Source: Escherichia phage vB_EcoS-UDF157lw
Strand: one strand, 5' to 3'
Sequence record: OQ243221
Length of the DNA stretch: 46,604 bases
The notes beneath the pieces were generated by a model. That model was not told the origin of the DNA. It did no database searches and saw nothing but the letters and a program-made list of their open reading frames with translations. Below, piece after piece: positions 1 to 46,604 of the stretch (positions are counted from its first letter, which is position 1; each line of letters starts with the position of its first letter). A program made the translations under genes and the position numbers.

Positions 1-44
1 TGGATCAAATAGTTGGTTGGTTTTATCGCTCGCGGAGAGACTTC

Positions 45-235
45 TTTATATACGCGTAGTCCGCTGTCTACCGATTGTCGACCGTATCCACATTTACAAT
101 TTATACGCCTTGATACAATCCATATACACTAAAATATCCTTATATATAAAGTACTTAGACTATTATTATTATTATATATAGTATTATGTATATATAGCGT
201 ATCATCTGTACGCTACTATATAGGTTGGTTTGCTT
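45..235. repeat. AT-rich non-coding block homologous to 27079-27270 (direct repeat, diverged)
   Basis: See partner; contains TATACGC-type repeats at 47-54, 101-108, 198-205 (inverted) and an ATTATTATTATTAT tract. Confidence 0.6.
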
Positions 236-4147: not shown

Positions 4148-4663
4148 ATGTCAGAAGAGAAAAAGATTCACCAGAAGATTGGCAACTTCAAGGAGCTATA
4201 CAATAAGAAGTATGGCGACATTGCCAATCTAAAGATTAACCACAGGTACACTCCTGAGCAGGTATTCGACATGGCCGTAAGGTATTTCAGCTGGGCTGAA
4301 GAGCAAGCGATTAAGGCCATTGAAACGGCGAGCTTTCAGGGTGTTGTAACGGAAAACCTTGTTCATAAGCCACGAATATTTACGATAACTGGATTCCAAC
4401 TTTTCTGCGGCGTTGGTCATAATGCCATCAGTAAATGGCGCTCTTCGCCTGGATTTGATGAGGTGATGGAGTTTGTGGATTCGGTAATCTTTGAGCAGAA
4501 GTATCAGCTTGGCGTTAACAACATCATCAACCCTGGACTGATTGGCAAAGACCTTGGCATCGATAAGCCGCAAGAGGTTAACATCAACAACGCTTCTAAT
4601 GCGGCAGTGAACGATGAAGAAGCGATCAAGGCTGCTCTCGAATCAGTAATTGATAAGCTATAG
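4148..4663 (+). CDS. Putative terminase small subunit (171 aa)
   Basis: Position immediately upstream of the terminase large subunit; strong RBS aggagga; own promoter-like region after terminator. Assignment is positional. Confidence 0.5.
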   Translation: MSEEKKIHQKIGNFKELYNKKYGDIANLKINHRYTPEQVFDMAVRYFSWAEEQAIKAIETASFQGVVTENLVHKPRIFTITGFQLFCGVGHNAISKWRSSPGFDEVMEFVDSVIFEQKYQLGVNNIINPGLIGKDLGIDKPQEVNINNASNAAVNDEEAIKAALESVIDKL

Positions 4664-19899: not shown

Positions 19900-19900
19900 A

Positions 19901-25755: not shown

Positions 25756-25762
25756 ATGATTA

Positions 25763-25787
25763 AGCCCCTTTCGGGGCTTTTTCTTTT
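25763..25787. terminator. Bidirectional terminator between J and the convergent leftward pair
   Basis: AGCCCC-tttc-GGGGCT hairpin followed by TTTTTCTTTT on the plus strand. Confidence 0.65.
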
Positions 25788-26748
25788 AGTAGAAGTTGGG
25801 AATAAATGGAAGTGCCATTGATATGTTTGTATCAAATGGGAATTGCGCGCCAGTTTGAGTTGAATAGTTACCTATAACAGTTCCTGGGACGGCTCTAACT
25901 GAACCTCCAGACATGCAAACACCCTTGTATCGTAAGTTATTATATCCACCAGTGACTCTAGTTGTCGCTCCGCATCTAAGTATTGGGAAGAACCCACCAT
26001 TCACCGACTGGTAACCATTATTAATCTGCATAAATCCACTTAGAACAAATGGCCTCCTGATGCTAGAGAAAACTATCTGCCCAGCGCTGTTTGATATCGT
26101 TAAACCCGGACCAGCTACTGGAGGTGTATTATTGAAAATAACTAACTGAACGTAAGTACTTGCAGCAACATCATCAATCCCATTGTATGTTATATCCCTA
26201 CACCATATCGTACTACCATCACTTTCAAGGGATACGTTTGGGTTATCCCATTTACCAAAAGGAATGCCGCCAACTGGCAATGATGCAGAGCCATTAACCT
26301 GGATGCCACCAACCCAAGCAGCAGTCATTAATCTGGAATTGCTTGATATCGCTGTAAAGTCAGTCGAGTTCTCAACAAGGACACCGGGGCTTGATTGTGA
26401 TGATGCTGGTAAAATCTCAAAGCACTGACCGCCAAACTGCAATATGCGACCATTAGCGCCGTTAAAGTTACTTAATGTAATCCTTCCAACCCCATCATTA
26501 ACCTTCGAGAACCCATTCATGTAATAAACTTCTGGTATAACATCATATGCATCAACATAAACAGCCTGAGTTGGCAGGCAGAATGCTGTTGAGCCAGGAG
26601 TCATAGTCAGACCGAAATCCCATGATGATGCTGGTGAGCTTAACCCGCTAGTGTTTATTGAACCAGTCACGGCTGGAACTCTCAAGCCAGCTGTGATTTC
26701 CATTGCTGGCCTTCCGTCATTCAAATCTATCAAGATACCTTGAGGCAT
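25786..26748 (-). CDS. Hypothetical beta-rich protein (320 aa), co-transcribed with Cor-like lipoprotein
   Basis: ATG overlaps the upstream stop (TAATG) with AAGGAG RBS; Gly/Ser/Asn/Thr-rich, no signal peptide. Confidence 0.55.
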   Translation of the reverse strand: MPQGILIDLNDGRPAMEITAGLRVPAVTGSINTSGLSSPASSWDFGLTMTPGSTAFCLPTQAVYVDAYDVIPEVYYMNGFSKVNDGVGRITLSNFNGANGRILQFGGQCFEILPASSQSSPGVLVENSTDFTAISSNSRLMTAAWVGGIQVNGSASLPVGGIPFGKWDNPNVSLESDGSTIWCRDITYNGIDDVAASTYVQLVIFNNTPPVAGPGLTISNSAGQIVFSSIRRPFVLSGFMQINNGYQSVNGGFFPILRCGATTRVTGGYNNLRYKGVCMSGGSVRAVPGTVIGNYSTQTGAQFPFDTNISMALPFIPNFY

Positions 26749-26993
26749 TATTTCCACTCCTTTGAGCCGTGATCTGCAACTGAGCCGCCGTAGCCTCCAC
26801 CAACCTTTGACTCAATGCCAGCATAACGAATATCAACCTCTCCAGCTGCAACAATAACACCACCCTTCCATTTAGCTACGCATACACCAGAGGCCTGAGT
26901 TGCACACCATCCGTCAGGTCGCGGGCCAGAAGAACAACCTACTGTCATGATTACTGCTGCTGCGATGATTGCTGATTTGATGAAGTTAGTCAT
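26748..26993 (-). CDS. Small lipoprotein, Cor-like superinfection-exclusion candidate (81 aa)
   Basis: N-terminal signal peptide with lipobox-like TVGC ([22 protein letters not shown]); location downstream of tail fibre genes as for cor in T1/phi80-type phages. Confidence 0.5.
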
Positions 26994-27017
26994 TTTGTAT
27001 TCCTTAGTAAGTATGTT

Positions 27018-27077
27018 TCGTTTCGATGGAGTAACTATAGCAAAGGCTTCTGCTGGAGTCTTTAGCAAATCGTGCTA
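27018..27077 (-). promoter_or_regulatory. Composite promoter-like element on minus strand: TAGCACgatTTGCTAAA, 23 nt, TGcTATAGT, leader CATCGAAACGA
   Basis: Reverse complement of 27018-27077 read directly; drives the lipoprotein operon. Confidence 0.5.
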
Positions 27078-27078
27078 T

Positions 27079-27270
27079 TTGATATACGCGTAACCGATGT
27101 AACTCGATGTATACAATCTCATACGCGGAAAATTGTATACGCTTTTTACGCGAAGATACGCATTAGTTACACTATAGAATCCTTATATAATAAGGGTTTA
27201 GAGTAATTATTATTATTACTATATTTGTTTGTATATAGTGTAACTACTCTCTATGGTTATGTTGGTGTGT
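27079..27270. repeat. AT-rich non-coding block homologous to 45-235, with GATACGC-type iterons and a (TTA)n tract
   Basis: Shared blocks such as atatacgcgta, atccttatata, ttattattattat, gtatatag, ggtt..gtttg with window positions 45-235, same orientation. Confidence 0.6.
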
Positions 27271-27435
27271 TTTTCTAAAAGACTATGTTTGACTTCCTGT
27301 TAAGGAGGAGATGCATATAGATATAGATAGGGTGCAATTGTGGTGGATACATTGGTTACAAGAGTTACAGCCAGTGCTGGTGCGGTTTAGAAGGTAGCGA
27401 ACCGTATTTATGTGCTTTTTACACCGATATACAGA

Positions 27436-27478
27436 TAGCACGAATAATCAAAACTGATTCTTCCTGATTGGTTATAGT
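27436..27478 (+). promoter_or_regulatory. Degenerate composite promoter-like element: TAGCACgaaTAATCAAAA, 22 nt, TATAGT, upstream of Rha-like gene
   Basis: Half-motif conserved (TAGCAC); TATAGT at 27473-27478. Confidence 0.4.
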
Positions 27479-27488
27479 GCACTCACCG

Positions 27489-27512
27489 GCAGCAGTGGTG
27501 CTGCTTTTGATG
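27489..27512 (+). promoter_or_regulatory. Leader hairpin plus U-run (attenuator-like) upstream of Rha-like gene
   Basis: GCAGCA-gtgg-TGCTGC followed by TTTTGATG, between the putative promoter and the start codon. Confidence 0.35.
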
Positions 27513-27578
27513 CAAAAAAATGCACCACAAAATCCGGGAGTGAAAATAATTCAACCCCAAAAACGAGAGATGATAGGT

Positions 27579-28289
27579 ATGAATCTGATTAATATTGATG
27601 AAAACGTAACCATGAGCAGCCTTGAGATTGCTGAATTGACCGGGAAGCGTCACGATAACGTAGTAAGGGATATTAGAGAAATGCTGAATGATAATGAGAT
27701 ATGCTCAGGATTTAGCCAATCTCACTCCTCAAATTTGAGGAGTGAAATTCAAAATGAATCTCGCGGCTCAAATGTGGACCGCCAGATTAAACACCCATTT
27801 GAATCTGAGTACAAAAACTCAAGAGGCCAAACTCAGCCATGCTTCAACTTACCATATCGTGAAACCATGATTTTGATGGTTGGTTACAACAGAAAGGTAG
27901 CCGCAAAGATTGTTGACCGCTGGCTACACCTTGAGCGGGAAAACAAGCTCCTTAAAGAGCACATGAAGAAGATGGTTTCACTTGATGAGGTTAAGGTTTA
28001 CAAAGTTGAGGCGGCATCAGCAAAGGCTGCACAGCACAGAGCTGAGGATAACTATTACGCAATTGAGAAGTTCATGTTTAAGAACATGGATAAGTGCGAA
28101 AATCCTGCAGAACTTGATGAGCAATACTTCGATGTTAAATTCGAGTCAAATCGTTACCATGACTCTCAAGAGTTGGTTTACAAGTACCAGGCTCAGCTTG
28201 AGGTTGCTTGCGAGAAGTTAAAGGCTAAAGATGATCTGATTGCCAATCTGGTGCATAAAGGCGAACCGCTTAAGCTTGGTAAAAAGTAA
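27579..28289 (+). CDS. Rha-family phage regulatory protein (237 aa from ATG 27579)
   Basis: N-terminal motif SSLEIAELTGKRHDNVVRDIREML typical of Rha/antirepressor-type proteins; coiled-coil C-terminus. Track start 27468 spans the leader hairpin and is rejected. Confidence 0.65.
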   Translation: MNLINIDENVTMSSLEIAELTGKRHDNVVRDIREMLNDNEICSGFSQSHSSNLRSEIQNESRGSNVDRQIKHPFESEYKNSRGQTQPCFNLPYRETMILMVGYNRKVAAKIVDRWLHLERENKLLKEHMKKMVSLDEVKVYKVEAASAKAAQHRAEDNYYAIEKFMFKNMDKCENPAELDEQYFDVKFESNRYHDSQELVYKYQAQLEVACEKLKAKDDLIANLVHKGEPLKLGKK

Positions 28290-28322
28290 TCAGTAAACAA
28301 AAACGCTTCCAGTACAGGAAAC

Positions 28323-28364
28323 AAAAATGTTGACTGTACGGTCAATAAAAATGTTGACCGTTAA
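28323..28364 (+). promoter_or_regulatory. Tandem AAAAATGTTGAC repeats with near-palindrome TTGACTGTACGGTCAA (operator-like)
   Basis: Read directly in the 150-bp intergenic region upstream of the 28442 gene. Confidence 0.35.
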
Positions 28365-28441
28365 CTAATAGGCAAAACCAATTGGATAAACTTAGCTACG
28401 GATGTCATAGTTAAACCACATAAACAGAGAGAGATAGAAAA

Positions 28442-28636
28442 ATGGCATACTTCATTATTCAAGAGCGAAATAACCCTATTTTCGGAACATGTTACTACTG
28501 TGTAGATGGCTCAGGTTACACAAGCAATAAATCAGAGGCAGCAAGATTTGAGACAAAGCAGGAAGCTATTGAATACGCCCACGTGACAGATGAGGAGCTT
28601 GGTTCAGTAATGAAGATTATTAAGGTGAAGGAATAA
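28442..28636 (+). CDS. Hypothetical protein (64 aa)
   Basis: ORF with RBS agagagag; upstream of the exonuclease. Confidence 0.5.
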   Translation: MAYFIIQERNNPIFGTCYYCVDGSGYTSNKSEAARFETKQEAIEYAHVTDEELGSVMKIIKVKE

Positions 28637-28639
28637 ATC

Positions 28640-29608
28640 ATGAGCTTCAAGGTTTACACTAGCGACGAGTTAACCAACGAAGCCTACCACAAGGAGTCAG
28701 ACCATGTGTCTGGCTCTGGTCTGGCTCACATCTTCTCAACTTGCCCCGCTGCTTATAAGTTTGCAGAGCATGATGATAGCAATAAGGCGTTAAAGTTCGG
28801 TACATTAGCCCACACGGTTATTCTTGAAAACTATGTATTCGATGCGACTTACTATCGCCAGCCAGCGCAAGAAGAGTTTGAGGATCTGATTACTAGCAAG
28901 ACTGCTTTGGCAACTCGATTGAAGTCGATGGGTATTGCTGGAACATCTGGTAAGGATTATCCAGAATTAATGGAGATTCTGGCGCTGAGCGGTGAATCAC
29001 TTAACGTATGGTGGGATATTCAGCGCTCTAGCGAGGTTAAAGCGAACGGTCGCGAGATTGTATCAGCTAAAGACTTTGACACAGTACATGCGATGCGAGA
29101 GGTGCTGTGCGGCATTCCTGCATACAATGCGATAGTGAACAGTAAAACCGCTCAGCGAGAGTTATCAATCTTCGGTGAGATTAACGAGTGCGGCGTTAAG
29201 GTTCGTCTTGACCATGTCGATGTCGTTGATGATGTAGTTTATATCCGTGACTACAAGACGACTAGCGACGCATCTCCATCTGGATTTGGGAGATTGGCCT
29301 TCAAGCATGGTTACTTGCTAAAAATGGCGCTTCAGCATGATTTGTTTGTTCGCGCCTTTAATGAGAAGCGTCGAGTTGTTGTTCAGCTTCTTTGCCAGGA
29401 AAAGAAAAGCCCATTCCTTCCAATGTGCTACACGATAACAAAAGAGCACTTAAAGGTTGGTAGATTGCAATACATGAGCGCCCTATCCACATACAAGCAA
29501 TGCAAGAAACTTGATATTTGGCCTGGTTACGGATTTGGCGAAACAGAGATGGAACTGCAAGTTCCTGAGTATGAGATGAAGAAGTACGAAGATAGCACGA
29601 ATAGCTAA
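28640..29608 (+). CDS. Recombination exonuclease, PD-(D/E)XK family (RecE/YqaJ/lambda-Exo-like, 322 aa)
   Basis: Motif LDHVDVVDDVVYIRDYKTT (D..D..K-type nuclease core); adjacent to an Erf-family annealase. Confidence 0.65.
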   Translation: MSFKVYTSDELTNEAYHKESDHVSGSGLAHIFSTCPAAYKFAEHDDSNKALKFGTLAHTVILENYVFDATYYRQPAQEEFEDLITSKTALATRLKSMGIAGTSGKDYPELMEILALSGESLNVWWDIQRSSEVKANGREIVSAKDFDTVHAMREVLCGIPAYNAIVNSKTAQRELSIFGEINECGVKVRLDHVDVVDDVVYIRDYKTTSDASPSGFGRLAFKHGYLLKMALQHDLFVRAFNEKRRVVVQLLCQEKKSPFLPMCYTITKEHLKVGRLQYMSALSTYKQCKKLDIWPGYGFGETEMELQVPEYEMKKYEDSTNS

Positions 29609-29635
29609 AACGGTATTAAATCGATGGGGTATAGT
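29593..29635 (+). promoter_or_regulatory. Composite promoter-like element variant: TAGCACgaaTAGCTAAA, 20-22 nt, TATAGT, leader CATCGACAACAAAGAGAG
   Basis: Overlaps the exonuclease stop; hairpin CGATGGGGTA-TAG-TTACCTCATCG spans the -10. Confidence 0.45.
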
Positions 29636-29664
29636 TACCTCATCGACAACAAAGAGAGATAGAA

Positions 29665-30312
29665 ATGAAGACTTCAGAGAGTAACAAAACAGTTTTACAG
29701 GCACTATTTAAAGCTCGCACAGGATTTGCGAAGGCAGCAAGAGACAAGCAGAACAGTCACCTAAAGAATAGATACGCAACACTTGATTCCATGCTGGAGG
29801 CTGTAATCCCAGCACTTGATGATAACGACTTAATGATTATGCAGAGCATGTTAGAAACATCAACTGCTGACAATCTTAACGTAGAGACGACTCTCTATCA
29901 CGTTTCTGGCGAGTGGGTTAGCTTCTTCATGATTATGCCAATCGTTAAGAAAGACCCGCAAGGAGTAGGATCTGCATTTACATACGCTCGGCGTTACTCA
30001 CTAGCGGCGGCTTTGGGAATTAGTCAGTCTGACGATGATGCGCAGATGGCAGTTAAGAGCGTCAAGGACTGGAAGCGCGATATTGAGAAGGCAGAAACTC
30101 GAGAAGAGCTTATCGAAATCTACAAATCATGCAAATCACAAGCTGACACGGCAACGTGGGGTATAGTAGAGAAAGCGATAATAGATAAACAAGCAGAGAT
30201 CAAAATGGCTTCCGCAAGTGGCTTCAACCCAGCTAAGCCAAAGGAAGTTGCTAAAAAAGTTGCAAACGCAACTAATGAAGTAGTAGAATCACAATCAATC
30301 GAGCAGTTCTAA
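29665..30312 (+). CDS. erf: Erf-family single-strand annealing protein (215 aa)
   Basis: Conserved Erf-like stretch LYHVSGEW...FTYARRYSLAAALGISQSDDD; paired with the exonuclease. Confidence 0.8.
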   Translation: MKTSESNKTVLQALFKARTGFAKAARDKQNSHLKNRYATLDSMLEAVIPALDDNDLMIMQSMLETSTADNLNVETTLYHVSGEWVSFFMIMPIVKKDPQGVGSAFTYARRYSLAAALGISQSDDDAQMAVKSVKDWKRDIEKAETREELIEIYKSCKSQADTATWGIVEKAIIDKQAEIKMASASGFNPAKPKEVAKKVANATNEVVESQSIEQF

Positions 30313-30788: not shown

Positions 30789-30816
30789 AGAAAAAGCCCC
30801 TTTCGGGGCTTTTTTA
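30789..30816. terminator. Bidirectional rho-independent terminator
   Basis: AGCCCC-tttc-GGGGCT flanked by an A-run upstream and a T-run downstream. Confidence 0.7.
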
Positions 30817-40389: not shown

Positions 40390-40432
40390 ATAGCACGAAT
40401 TGCTAAAACGAAAATCAAAAGATGGGGTATAG
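40390..40432 (+). promoter_or_regulatory. Composite promoter-like element: TAGCACgaaTTGCTAAA, 22 nt, TATAGT, leader ...AAACGAGAGGA
   Basis: Hairpin GATGGGGTA-TAG-TTACCCCATC spans the -10. Confidence 0.55.
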
Positions 40433-40465
40433 TTACCCCATCTAAACAAACGAGAGGATACAAAG

Positions 40466-46417: not shown

Positions 46418-46460
46418 CTATAGCCTTGCCATCCCCATTTTTCTTTAGCAAAAAGTGCTA
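46418..46460 (-). promoter_or_regulatory. Composite promoter-like element (minus): TAGCACtttttGCTAAA, 21 nt, TATAGT, leader CATCAACAACGAGGAG
   Basis: Reverse complement read directly; drives the leftward small-gene operon. Confidence 0.5.
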
Positions 46461-46604
46461 TTCGTCAGATTTATGGATTGTTGCAGGCATTGCGATGATT
46501 AGCATGACTATTACACATAAAGCAATATTTCATCGAGTGCAACAGGTTTATTGATTGTTGCCAGTTTGGCAATGATGGATGGATGGATTGAATGAAAGGA
46601 GGTT

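Follow-up and report, generated by a model that had tools for sequence, protein, structure and literature searches.

Phage TLS carries a 21-nt intergenic repeat, aaATAGCACnnnTTGnTAAAA, approximately 76 bases upstream of start codons; the repeat is said to occur in T1, Rtp and Rogue1 too, and the authors who described it leave its function open, naming a stoperator, an enhancer or an UP element (German et al. 2024, PMC11447400). Three sigma-70 promoters were found in the TLS genome (PMC11447400). T1-like phages are common laboratory contaminants and phage-therapy candidates, and annotators find very few sigma-70 promoters in them. Here, we describe the region at 26994-27578 of Escherichia phage vB_EcoS-UDF157lw (sequence record OQ243221), in which a full member and a variant of this repeat face away from each other. 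The window, meaning the whole stretch of DNA that was analyzed, is a complete Rogunavirus genome (Drexlerviridae, T1-like) of 46,604 nt with ~98% identity to phages BECP10 and AKS96. Because the window ends are contiguous in BECP10, the 46,604 bases represent one complete, circularly permuted genome.

Two other described systems resemble parts of this region. Class II marbox promoters, which belong to the mar/sox/rob regulon of E. coli and have micF as their type example, have a forward-oriented box that overlaps the -35 position and is centered at -36 to -55, and marboxes can be searched for with the pattern gcannwwntgnnaaa (PMC12052159). Promoter-early stem-loop (PeSL) cassettes have been reported from T4-type phages (Arbiol et al. 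2010, PMC2839356; Comeau et al. 2014, PMC4122927).

The region at 26994-27578 is ordinary in kind: two short operons of a virulent T1-like phage diverge from it and have their promoters there, and the phage lineage has already been sequenced. Based on sequence comparison, we consider it fairly likely that activator-dependent promoters of the marbox type flank a protein-binding core, that this core also holds an older promoter (PR1), and that a stem-loop at the 5' end of the Rha mRNA is protective. Two features stand out: a testable identification of the T1-like repeat as a candidate site for a host activator of the Mar/Sox/Rob type, and a core of hexamers and AT-rich DNA that is deeply conserved and duplicated.

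Promoter cassettes and their likeness to class II marbox promoters

The 585-bp gap lies between two divergent genes, a leftward lipoprotein gene and a rightward Rha-family gene, and both transcription units are bounded by terminators; promoters for both are therefore needed inside the gap (coordinates of all features are in Table 1). A generic sigma-70 scan detects neither the leftward promoter (PL) nor the rightward promoter (PR2), because both lack a -35 hexamer. All four elements listed in the original prediction (two composite promoters, a repeat block and a hairpin) are present where it placed them, and its outline of a divergent control region, in which a conserved repeat block separates leftward and rightward promoters of one composite kind, describes the gap well.

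Both promoters belong to a family of 15 copies in the genome, with the architecture ATAGCACnnWTTGYTAAA, 17-19 nt and then a TATAGT-type -10 hexamer. The box is separated from the -10 hexamer by 18 or 19 nt in 14 of the 15 copies and by 17 nt in one; the -10 hexamers match TATAAT at 4-5 of 6 positions, and a -35 hexamer is found in 0/15 copies. Every copy is co-directional with the next gene, and 13 of the 15 lie at 69-85 nt from the start codon, with a Shine-Dalgarno sequence and an ATG. Positions 1-7, 11 and 16-18 of the box are invariant, positions 9-10 are strictly A/T, and information content is highest at positions 1-7 (A-box), 11-13 and 16-18 (B-box); conservation ends at the edges of the 20-mer, and the stretch that holds exactly in the family profile is positions 1-18.

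Within the gap, the two boxes are the best-conserved parts among nine related phages (identity 0.96-0.97, as against 0.83-0.88 for the spacers), and the PL box has an identity of 0.97 across 7 phages. The distance from the start of the box to the ATG is 85 nt for PL and 144 nt for PR2, the latter being the longest in the family (69-85 nt in 13 of the 14 others). The predicted 5' untranslated region of the lipoprotein mRNA carries the family's conserved transcribed motif, CATCGAAACGAAAC, and a Shine-Dalgarno sequence, AAGGA, ahead of the ATG at 26993.

These cassettes carry the TLS repeat and agree with it in sequence, in co-orientation with the downstream gene and, approximately, in distance from the start codon (69-85 nt here vs. 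~76 nt in TLS), whereas the TLS paper contains neither a fixed 18-19-nt link to a -10 hexamer nor a match to the marbox. PL is a full member of the TLS 21-nt repeat family and reads caATAGCACgatTTGcTAAAg. PR2 is a variant in which TAATCAAAA replaces TTGnTAAAA, with TAATC for TTGnT; it keeps ATAGCAC and AAAA, and it has the 144-nt leader. The rightward promoter had earlier been described as degenerate, which holds only if the box is compared with its TTGCTAAA version: one position of the marbox consensus is lost, and the exact 18-nt spacing is kept.

Exact matches to the marbox search pattern, GCANNWWNTGNNAAA, number 14 in the window, compared with 0.98 expected. A longer, 20-mer marbox consensus is reportedly AYnGCACnnWnnRYYAAAYn (attributed to Martin et al., 1999), and 15/15 copies fit this consensus with at most one mismatch. 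PL has 0 mismatches to the 15-mer pattern and 1 to the 20-mer consensus, and PR2 has 2 and 1. We also compared the boxes with two crystallized DNAs, mar in complex with MarA (PDB 1BL0) and micF in complex with Rob (PDB 1D5Y), using the sequences in PMC8279559. The PL box is identical to the mar marbox at 15 of 20 positions, and the PR2 box is identical to the micF box at 12 of 19 comparable positions, B-box TCAAA included. The copy at 4660 is 17/20 identical to the micF box of MG1655, of which 19/20 positions are in the DNA crystallized with Rob. The mar and micF sites share 9/19 positions with each other.

The likeness to class II marbox promoters extends to the arrangement of the parts: the 20-bp box is asymmetric, has GCAC as its A-box and TG..AAA as its B-box, lies in forward orientation and overlaps the -35 position. 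The likeness to micF specifically lies in the 18 nt to the -10 hexamer and in the absence of a -35 hexamer. We checked the geometry of micF directly in MG1655, where ACAGCACTGAATGTCAAAAC is followed by 18 nt, TAGAAT, 7 nt and then +1. The cassettes share the micF orientation and an 18-19-nt spacing, with the box centered at ~-41/-42 (18 nt in PR2, 19 nt in PL); by analogy with micF, the start sites of PL and PR2 were placed 7 nt after the -10 hexamer. Across the 15 copies the A-box is more constrained than the B-box, in agreement with the A-box-driven binding of Rob and MarA (PMC8279559). Two other assignments were rejected: TTGCTA as a -35 hexamer is ruled out by its distance of 22-23 nt from the -10 hexamer, and a T4 MotA box is ruled out by spacing, in a phage that has no MotA.

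The cassette also occurs outside the T1-like phages. Klebsiella Weberviruses and T4-like Pseudotevenviruses of 175-179 kb, the latter being phages of Enterobacter, Cronobacter and E. coli, have it at ~80% identity over 75-85 nt, placed before small genes that are unrelated. A tblastn search of the phage for a MarA/AraC homologue, with a MarA sequence entered by hand as the query, returned none (E > 1). The lack of a MarA-like phage protein, together with the presence of the cassette in unrelated phages, points to an enterobacterial host factor rather than a phage factor.

We propose that the 20-mer would serve as a marbox bound by a monomeric host activator of the AraC family (Rob, MarA or SoxS; RamA in Klebsiella and Enterobacter). 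From the class II position, forward and overlapping -35, the activator would recruit sigma-70 RNA polymerase as it does at micF, and the likeliest default activator would be Rob, which is made constitutively.

Several observations weigh against this proposal. Unlike the marboxes of E. coli, which are far more degenerate, these are 15 near-identical copies heading most non-structural transcription units of a virulent phage; position 3, an N in the consensus, never varies, and the consensus Y at position 19 is not kept in the box. Such uniformity could mean that a different, more specific protein binds there. In addition, MarA and SoxS are scarce in uninduced cells and Rob is largely sequestered (PMC2787020), so a whole lytic program that depends on them is not obviously efficient.

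The box might instead be the site of another protein of phage or host. It might also be contacted by RNA polymerase itself, in the manner of an UP element or an enhancer, or might act as a stoperator, options that are in part those named in the TLS paper (PMC11447400). The uniformity of the box, which includes the consensus N positions 3 and 11, would fit such a reading, and the searched literature contained no paper linking Rob, MarA or SoxS to T1-like phages and no experiment tying Rob to them. However, all specified marbox positions but one are kept, the conserved extent is that of the 20-bp marbox, and orientation and the 18-19-nt spacing equal those of micF. Promoters that lack a -35 hexamer need some activator, the box is not A/T-rich as an UP element is, and the spread across unrelated phage families, without an AraC-type protein encoded by the phage (as searched with the hand-entered query), is harder to reconcile with a phage protein. 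We regard a different binder as somewhat unlikely and retain the marbox assignment.

More tentatively, it is possible that T1-like phages (Drexlerviridae) run essentially their whole non-structural program from class II marbox promoters, in which case early and accessory genes would both require and respond to the host activators of stress and antibiotic responses, Mar/Sox/Rob (or RamA). If the repeat is a class II marbox, the promoter problem of the T1-like phages would be solved. Gene expression, burst size and levels of the superinfection-exclusion lipoprotein should then shift in rob/marA/soxS mutants, and the same readouts should shift with salicylate, paraquat, bile salts and dipyridyl, signals that switch on antibiotic tolerance. 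The 21-nt repeat would be a hijacked site of a host regulon that travels as a mobile cassette into Klebsiella Weberviruses and T4-like Pseudotevenviruses, and the divergent region would consist of two Rob-type sites flanking a second protein-binding or origin element.

The mobility of the cassette invites comparison with PeSL cassettes. Both are short conserved modules of a promoter and a stem-loop that are repeated genome-wide, before small accessory genes and at mosaic breakpoints; here, such breakpoints of homology lie at 27254, 27439 and 27505, and the cassette is also present in Pseudotevenvirus genomes. However, PeSL promoters are of the sigma-70 type with a recognizable -35 (near-consensus in RB49/phi1, variant in other T4-like phages), and their stem-loops have been shown to terminate upstream transcription, whereas the cassettes in the window have no -35, carry a marbox-like box and place the stem-loop inside the 5' end of the transcript. 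The two are alike in behavior, as promoter modules that move and are found at mosaic junctions, but the cassettes in the window do not belong to the PeSL class.

We noted that the whole PL-type cassette (box, spacer, TATAGT and the transcribed motif) is matched at ~80% identity at 2501-2583 of EC-F2 (Enterobacter phage, Pseudotevenvirus) and at 1897-1970 of Sushi (Klebsiella phage, Webervirus), in each between genes and before an unrelated small gene; on these alignments, the promoter cassette seems to move horizontally. Homology with relatives breaks at the edges of elements, namely at 27254/27255 for Braunvirinae including IME542, at 27439/27440 for e4/1c and at 27504/27505 for phiEB49, Sd1, AHS24, Rogue1, JK06 and Sf12. 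This pattern suggests recombination at cassette boundaries.

Repeat array and AT-rich core between the promoters

The interval between PL and PR2 is rich in WTACRC hexamers. There are 9 in 27079-27436, whereas 0.6 were predicted from the rest of the genome; dinucleotide shuffles of the same interval contained 1.5 +/- 1.2 (maximum 6 in 500 shuffles), and it is the densest such interval genome-wide. In array A, plus-strand cores start at 27084, 27121, 27137, 27146, 27156 and 27167, inverted copies lie at 27088-27103, and there is a 9-bp inverted repeat, GTATACAAT/ATTGTATAC (27109-27117 / 27132-27140). Based on an alignment of nine Rogunavirinae and Braunvirinae, the array, the 9-bp inverted repeat and an AT-rich block of ~70 bp make up a conserved core of ~170 bp at 27082-27254.

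This core is conserved in a second subfamily, the Braunvirinae, with which homology stops at 27254. There too, the core occupies a divergent gap immediately before the nuclease operon, and the plus-strand box is absent; the rightward promoter in Braunvirinae must therefore lie within the core. The AT-rich block contains sigma-70-like hexamers on the plus strand (TTTAGA-17-TATATT, 27197-27225) and on the minus strand (TATACA-18-AATAAT, 27235-27206). We designate TTTAGA/TTTACT, 17-18 nt and TATATT as the candidate promoter PR1. In this scheme the core would bind a further protein and would hold PR1 as an older rightward promoter of the sigma-70 type, the sole one available to the nuclease operon in Braunvirinae. 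Two findings tell against PR1, as promoter matches in the AT-rich block are no commoner than in shuffles and are present on both strands.

The phased units GTAACCGAT/GTAACTCGAT/GTATACAAT (27090-27117) and GATACATTG/GTTACAAGA/GTTACAG (27344-27370) resemble tandem half-sites of winged-helix response regulators (CpxR, GTAAA-N5-GTAAA; OmpR, GTTACA/TTTACA), which may hint at the binder of the array. Rha was considered as a general binder of the hexamer array and is unlikely in that role, because phage IME542 keeps two array copies and has no Rha homologue.

The core could be either a binding array for a regulator or a replication origin. Under the second reading, the phased repeats of 27082-27254 would be the target of an initiator or of a helicase loader, the (ATT)4 sequence would unwind and the divergent promoters would activate the process, which is compatible with the promoter flanks described above. 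The order of parts is suggestive, with repeats followed by a ~70-bp block of ~20% G+C that is bracketed by inverted hexamers, and the core is present in both divergent regions of the circular genome and adjoins recombination and SSB genes. According to the TLS paper (PMC11447400), T1-like phages have no known origin. However, the term iteron block, used in the original prediction, holds for the cluster and not for the class of repeat: the WTACRC cluster is real, and its units are 6-bp cores in both orientations at a 9-11-bp phase, not classical iterons of 17-22 bp. No IHF, DnaA, CRP, LexA or GATC sites were found in 26990-27600, no initiator gene was identified, and there are two or three copies of the core per genome. 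Cumulative GC skew is lowest at ~480, within the paralogous copy of the region, and a local sign change occurs at 27003-27037; this skew simply tracks gene orientation here, and we set it aside as origin evidence because of that confounding. An origin seems rather unlikely on these grounds, and a core that binds a further protein is the somewhat likelier reading; its deep conservation and its presence at both divergent regions nonetheless make it a concrete candidate for a replication origin or a master regulatory site.

The paralogous divergent region lies across the circular junction, at 46440-46604 joined to 1-495, and has a leftward marbox-like cassette with its box at 46461. Its array and AT-rich block are at window positions 1-195, with a TACRC-rich array at ~45-130 and an (ATT)4 block at 131-195 that is 79% identical to 27168-27237; the paralogous copy of the feature at 27164-27246 spans 125-194. 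A leader of ~240 nt with TAGACGC repeats (327-352) follows, with a rightward extended -10, TGCTATAGT (436-444), that has no box, and an ATG at 495.

The hairpin in the Rha leader

The stem-loop near the predicted start of the PR2 transcript has a 7-bp stem and stands ahead of UUUUGAUG. It folds with -10.8 kcal/mol, a free energy that is unexceptional relative to shuffles (z = -1.15; 24/200 shuffles fold as well). A terminator scan flagged it, and it is listed as a terminator in the AKS96 record on the basis of two predictors. It is much weaker than the phage terminators at 25762-25779 and 30791-30814, which have GC-rich stems of 7-10 bp and long T-runs.

The stem recurs in Sd1, AHS24, phiEB49, Sf12 and a divergent contig (L019). 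In IME253, AugustePiccard and L035, where leftward boxes precede the Rha-like genes, the stem comes after those boxes. One pair of the stem varies among A-U, G-C, U-G and G-U. By comparison, only 9 of the 28 related records have the U-run (including BECP10, AKS96, AHP42, phiJLA23 and C119), and homology with the rest stops precisely where the stem ends, at 27504/27505. A ribosome-binding site comes directly after the stem in phiEB49, Sf12 and several other cassettes. The inserted leader of ~70 nt in this lineage opens with U4. Because the stem is kept and the U-run is absent in most relatives, the conserved feature is a 5'-proximal stem-loop and not a terminator.

The hairpin is thus more likely a 5' stem-loop than a regulated attenuator. 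Stem-loops of the ompA type at the 5' terminus stabilize mRNA. The hairpin resembles them by position alone, being GC-rich and within ~3 nt of the predicted 5' end. Linked to the cassette in this way, the stem-loop would protect the 5' end of the Rha mRNA, and U4 in this lineage may add weak, unregulated, constitutive termination of PR1 and PR2 transcripts. A point against this assignment is that covariation in the hairpin is weak, with one compensatory pair, and 85/500 shuffles score as high.

The original prediction had instead treated the hairpin and U-run as a regulated attenuator or regulator-binding leader that gates the downstream operon as a temporal switch. Such a role would draw on the UUUU after the hairpin and the terminator predictions noted above, on a position downstream of both candidate rightward promoters, on an alternative pairing of 27495-27508 with 27515-27528, and on a PR2 leader that is the longest in the family. 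However, the U-run is missing from 19 of the 28 related records that keep the stem, the stem has only 7 bp with 4 U where the real terminators are more extensive, and many cassettes besides those of phiEB49 and Sf12 place the ribosome-binding site directly after it. Upstream sequence offers no antiterminator alternative; the sole alternative pairing draws on bases beyond the terminator and so cannot pre-empt termination. A search of Rfam at E <= 1 over 26500-28100 gave no match and no leader or riboswitch family, and the leader open reading frame (ORF) is not conserved. Attenuation in the leader is improbable in light of these results, and the protective 5' stem-loop remains our preferred assignment.

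The whole transcript from PR1 to the hairpin is not notable as a structured RNA (z = -1.45). In the Rha leader of the Sd1 (2400-2500) and AHS24 type, two further hairpins replace the U-run segment, the last being GCGCUCCU...AGGAGCG; this type of leader folds unusually well (z = -3.45), compared with z = -1.87 for the leader in the window.

Gene context, feature coordinates and further cassettes

Over 26000-29000, identity to BECP10, AKS96 and AHP42 is 98-99%, and a search for related loci using Rha gave 3 loci. Rha is followed by a 64-aa ORF, a PDDEXK nuclease, an ERF annealase and SSB; as to function, this unit is a recombination module and neither a replication nor a lysis operon, contrary to the earlier description of it as a replication/lysis operon. 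The label Cor, given to the leftward operon in that description, is a functional guess for a protein that matches a Pfam lipoprotein family.

Table 1. Coordinates of features in and around the divergent region, in window positions
Feature	Position	Strand	Remarks
Terminator closing leftward unit	25762-25779		strong, bidirectional
Lipoprotein gene	ATG 26993	-	81 aa; putative superinfection-exclusion type; Pfam 'Phage lipoprotein' PF24052; DUF6453 protein gene next in operon
Predicted 5' untranslated region, lipoprotein/DUF6453 mRNA	26994..27027	-	predicted start ~27027; mean pairwise identity 0.97 (7 phages)
PL extended -10, TGcTATAGT	27042->27034	-	hexamer 27039->27034
PL marbox-like 20-mer, ATAGCACGATTTGCTAAAGA	27078->27059	-	forward orientation, 19 nt upstream of -10, center ~-42
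Array A, WTACRC/GTWAC hexamers	27082..27176	both	~10-bp phase
AT-rich (ATT)4 block	27164..27246		perfect 13-bp inverted repeat, TAGTTACACTATA / TATAGTGTAACTA, on both sides
Shine-Dalgarno AAGGAGG and short ORF	27303..27397	+	28 aa; ATG 27311; no Pfam hit
Hexamer cluster B (GATACAT, GGTTACAA, AGTTACAG)	27344-27370	+	within short ORF region
Hexamer cluster C (TTTACAC, ATATACA)	27409..27434	+	75% direct repeat of 27136-27159; abuts PR2 box
PR2 marbox-like 20-mer, ATAGCACGAATAATCAAAAC	27435-27454	+	1 mismatch to AYNGCACNNWNNRYYAAAYN; identity 0.96 (5 phages)
PR2 -10 hexamer, TATAGT	27473-27478	+	18 nt after box; predicted start ~27485
Stem-loop, GGCAGCA-GUGG-UGCUGCU	27488-27505	+	+4 to +21 of PR2 transcript; U4 at 27505-27508
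Leader segment before Rha ATG	27509..27578	+	lineage-specific; identity 0.45 among relatives
Rha-family gene	ATG 27579	+	PF09669
Terminator closing rightward unit	30791-30814		strong, bidirectional
Other cassette copies	1580, 2423, 4660, 19900, 29592, 35071, 37467, 38152, 38838, 40390	+	
Other cassette copies	44466, 45626, 46461	-	

The short ORF within the gap is probably not a conserved protein gene, contrary to the annotation of AKS96. Its length is 14, 28, 34, 34, 34, 42, 45, 48 or 57 aa in nine relatives, with C-termini that differ; this variability, together with the absence of a Pfam hit, speaks against it as a gene. Its Shine-Dalgarno sequence is broken in AHS24, and its conserved nucleotides coincide with hexamer cluster B (27344-27370). 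The scheme in the AKS96 record, with a sigma-70 promoter at ~27157-27191, a small gene from 27311 and the hairpin as the terminator of that gene, draws on a Shine-Dalgarno sequence conserved in 8/9 phages and on ~20 conserved initial codons, and it is very unlikely given the inconstant ORF with one truncated copy, the overlap of those codons with cluster B, a promoter spacer of 23 nt, and a terminator that lies downstream of the PR2 start and has no U-run in most relatives.

The annotated start of Rha differs between records. In BECP10, it is GTG 27495, inside the hairpin loop, whereas in AKS96 it is ATG 27579, with a GAGAG Shine-Dalgarno sequence and alignment to relatives; the BECP10 start is probably too far upstream.

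Elsewhere in the genome, an internal cassette at 29592-29665 (ATAGCACGAATAGCTAAAAC, 18 nt, TATAGT) lies within the PDDEXK nuclease gene, at its 3' end, and stands ahead of ERF, so the recombination operon has a second promoter. The long run of structural genes has no cassette ahead of its genes, apart from the one before a small gene at 19900. The motif GGATGG is common at about -20 to -14 of the cassettes. The -10 hexamer of some cassettes sits between the arms of an inverted repeat, such as AGATGGGGTA/TACCCCATCT at the 40390 copy (40408-40446), GGGATA/TATCCC in EC-F2, GGGGTAA/TTACCCC in Sushi and GGGACT/AGTCCC in L019. This bracketing repeat is only weakly above shuffles over the 15 copies (4.6 vs. 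4.0 +/- 0.25).

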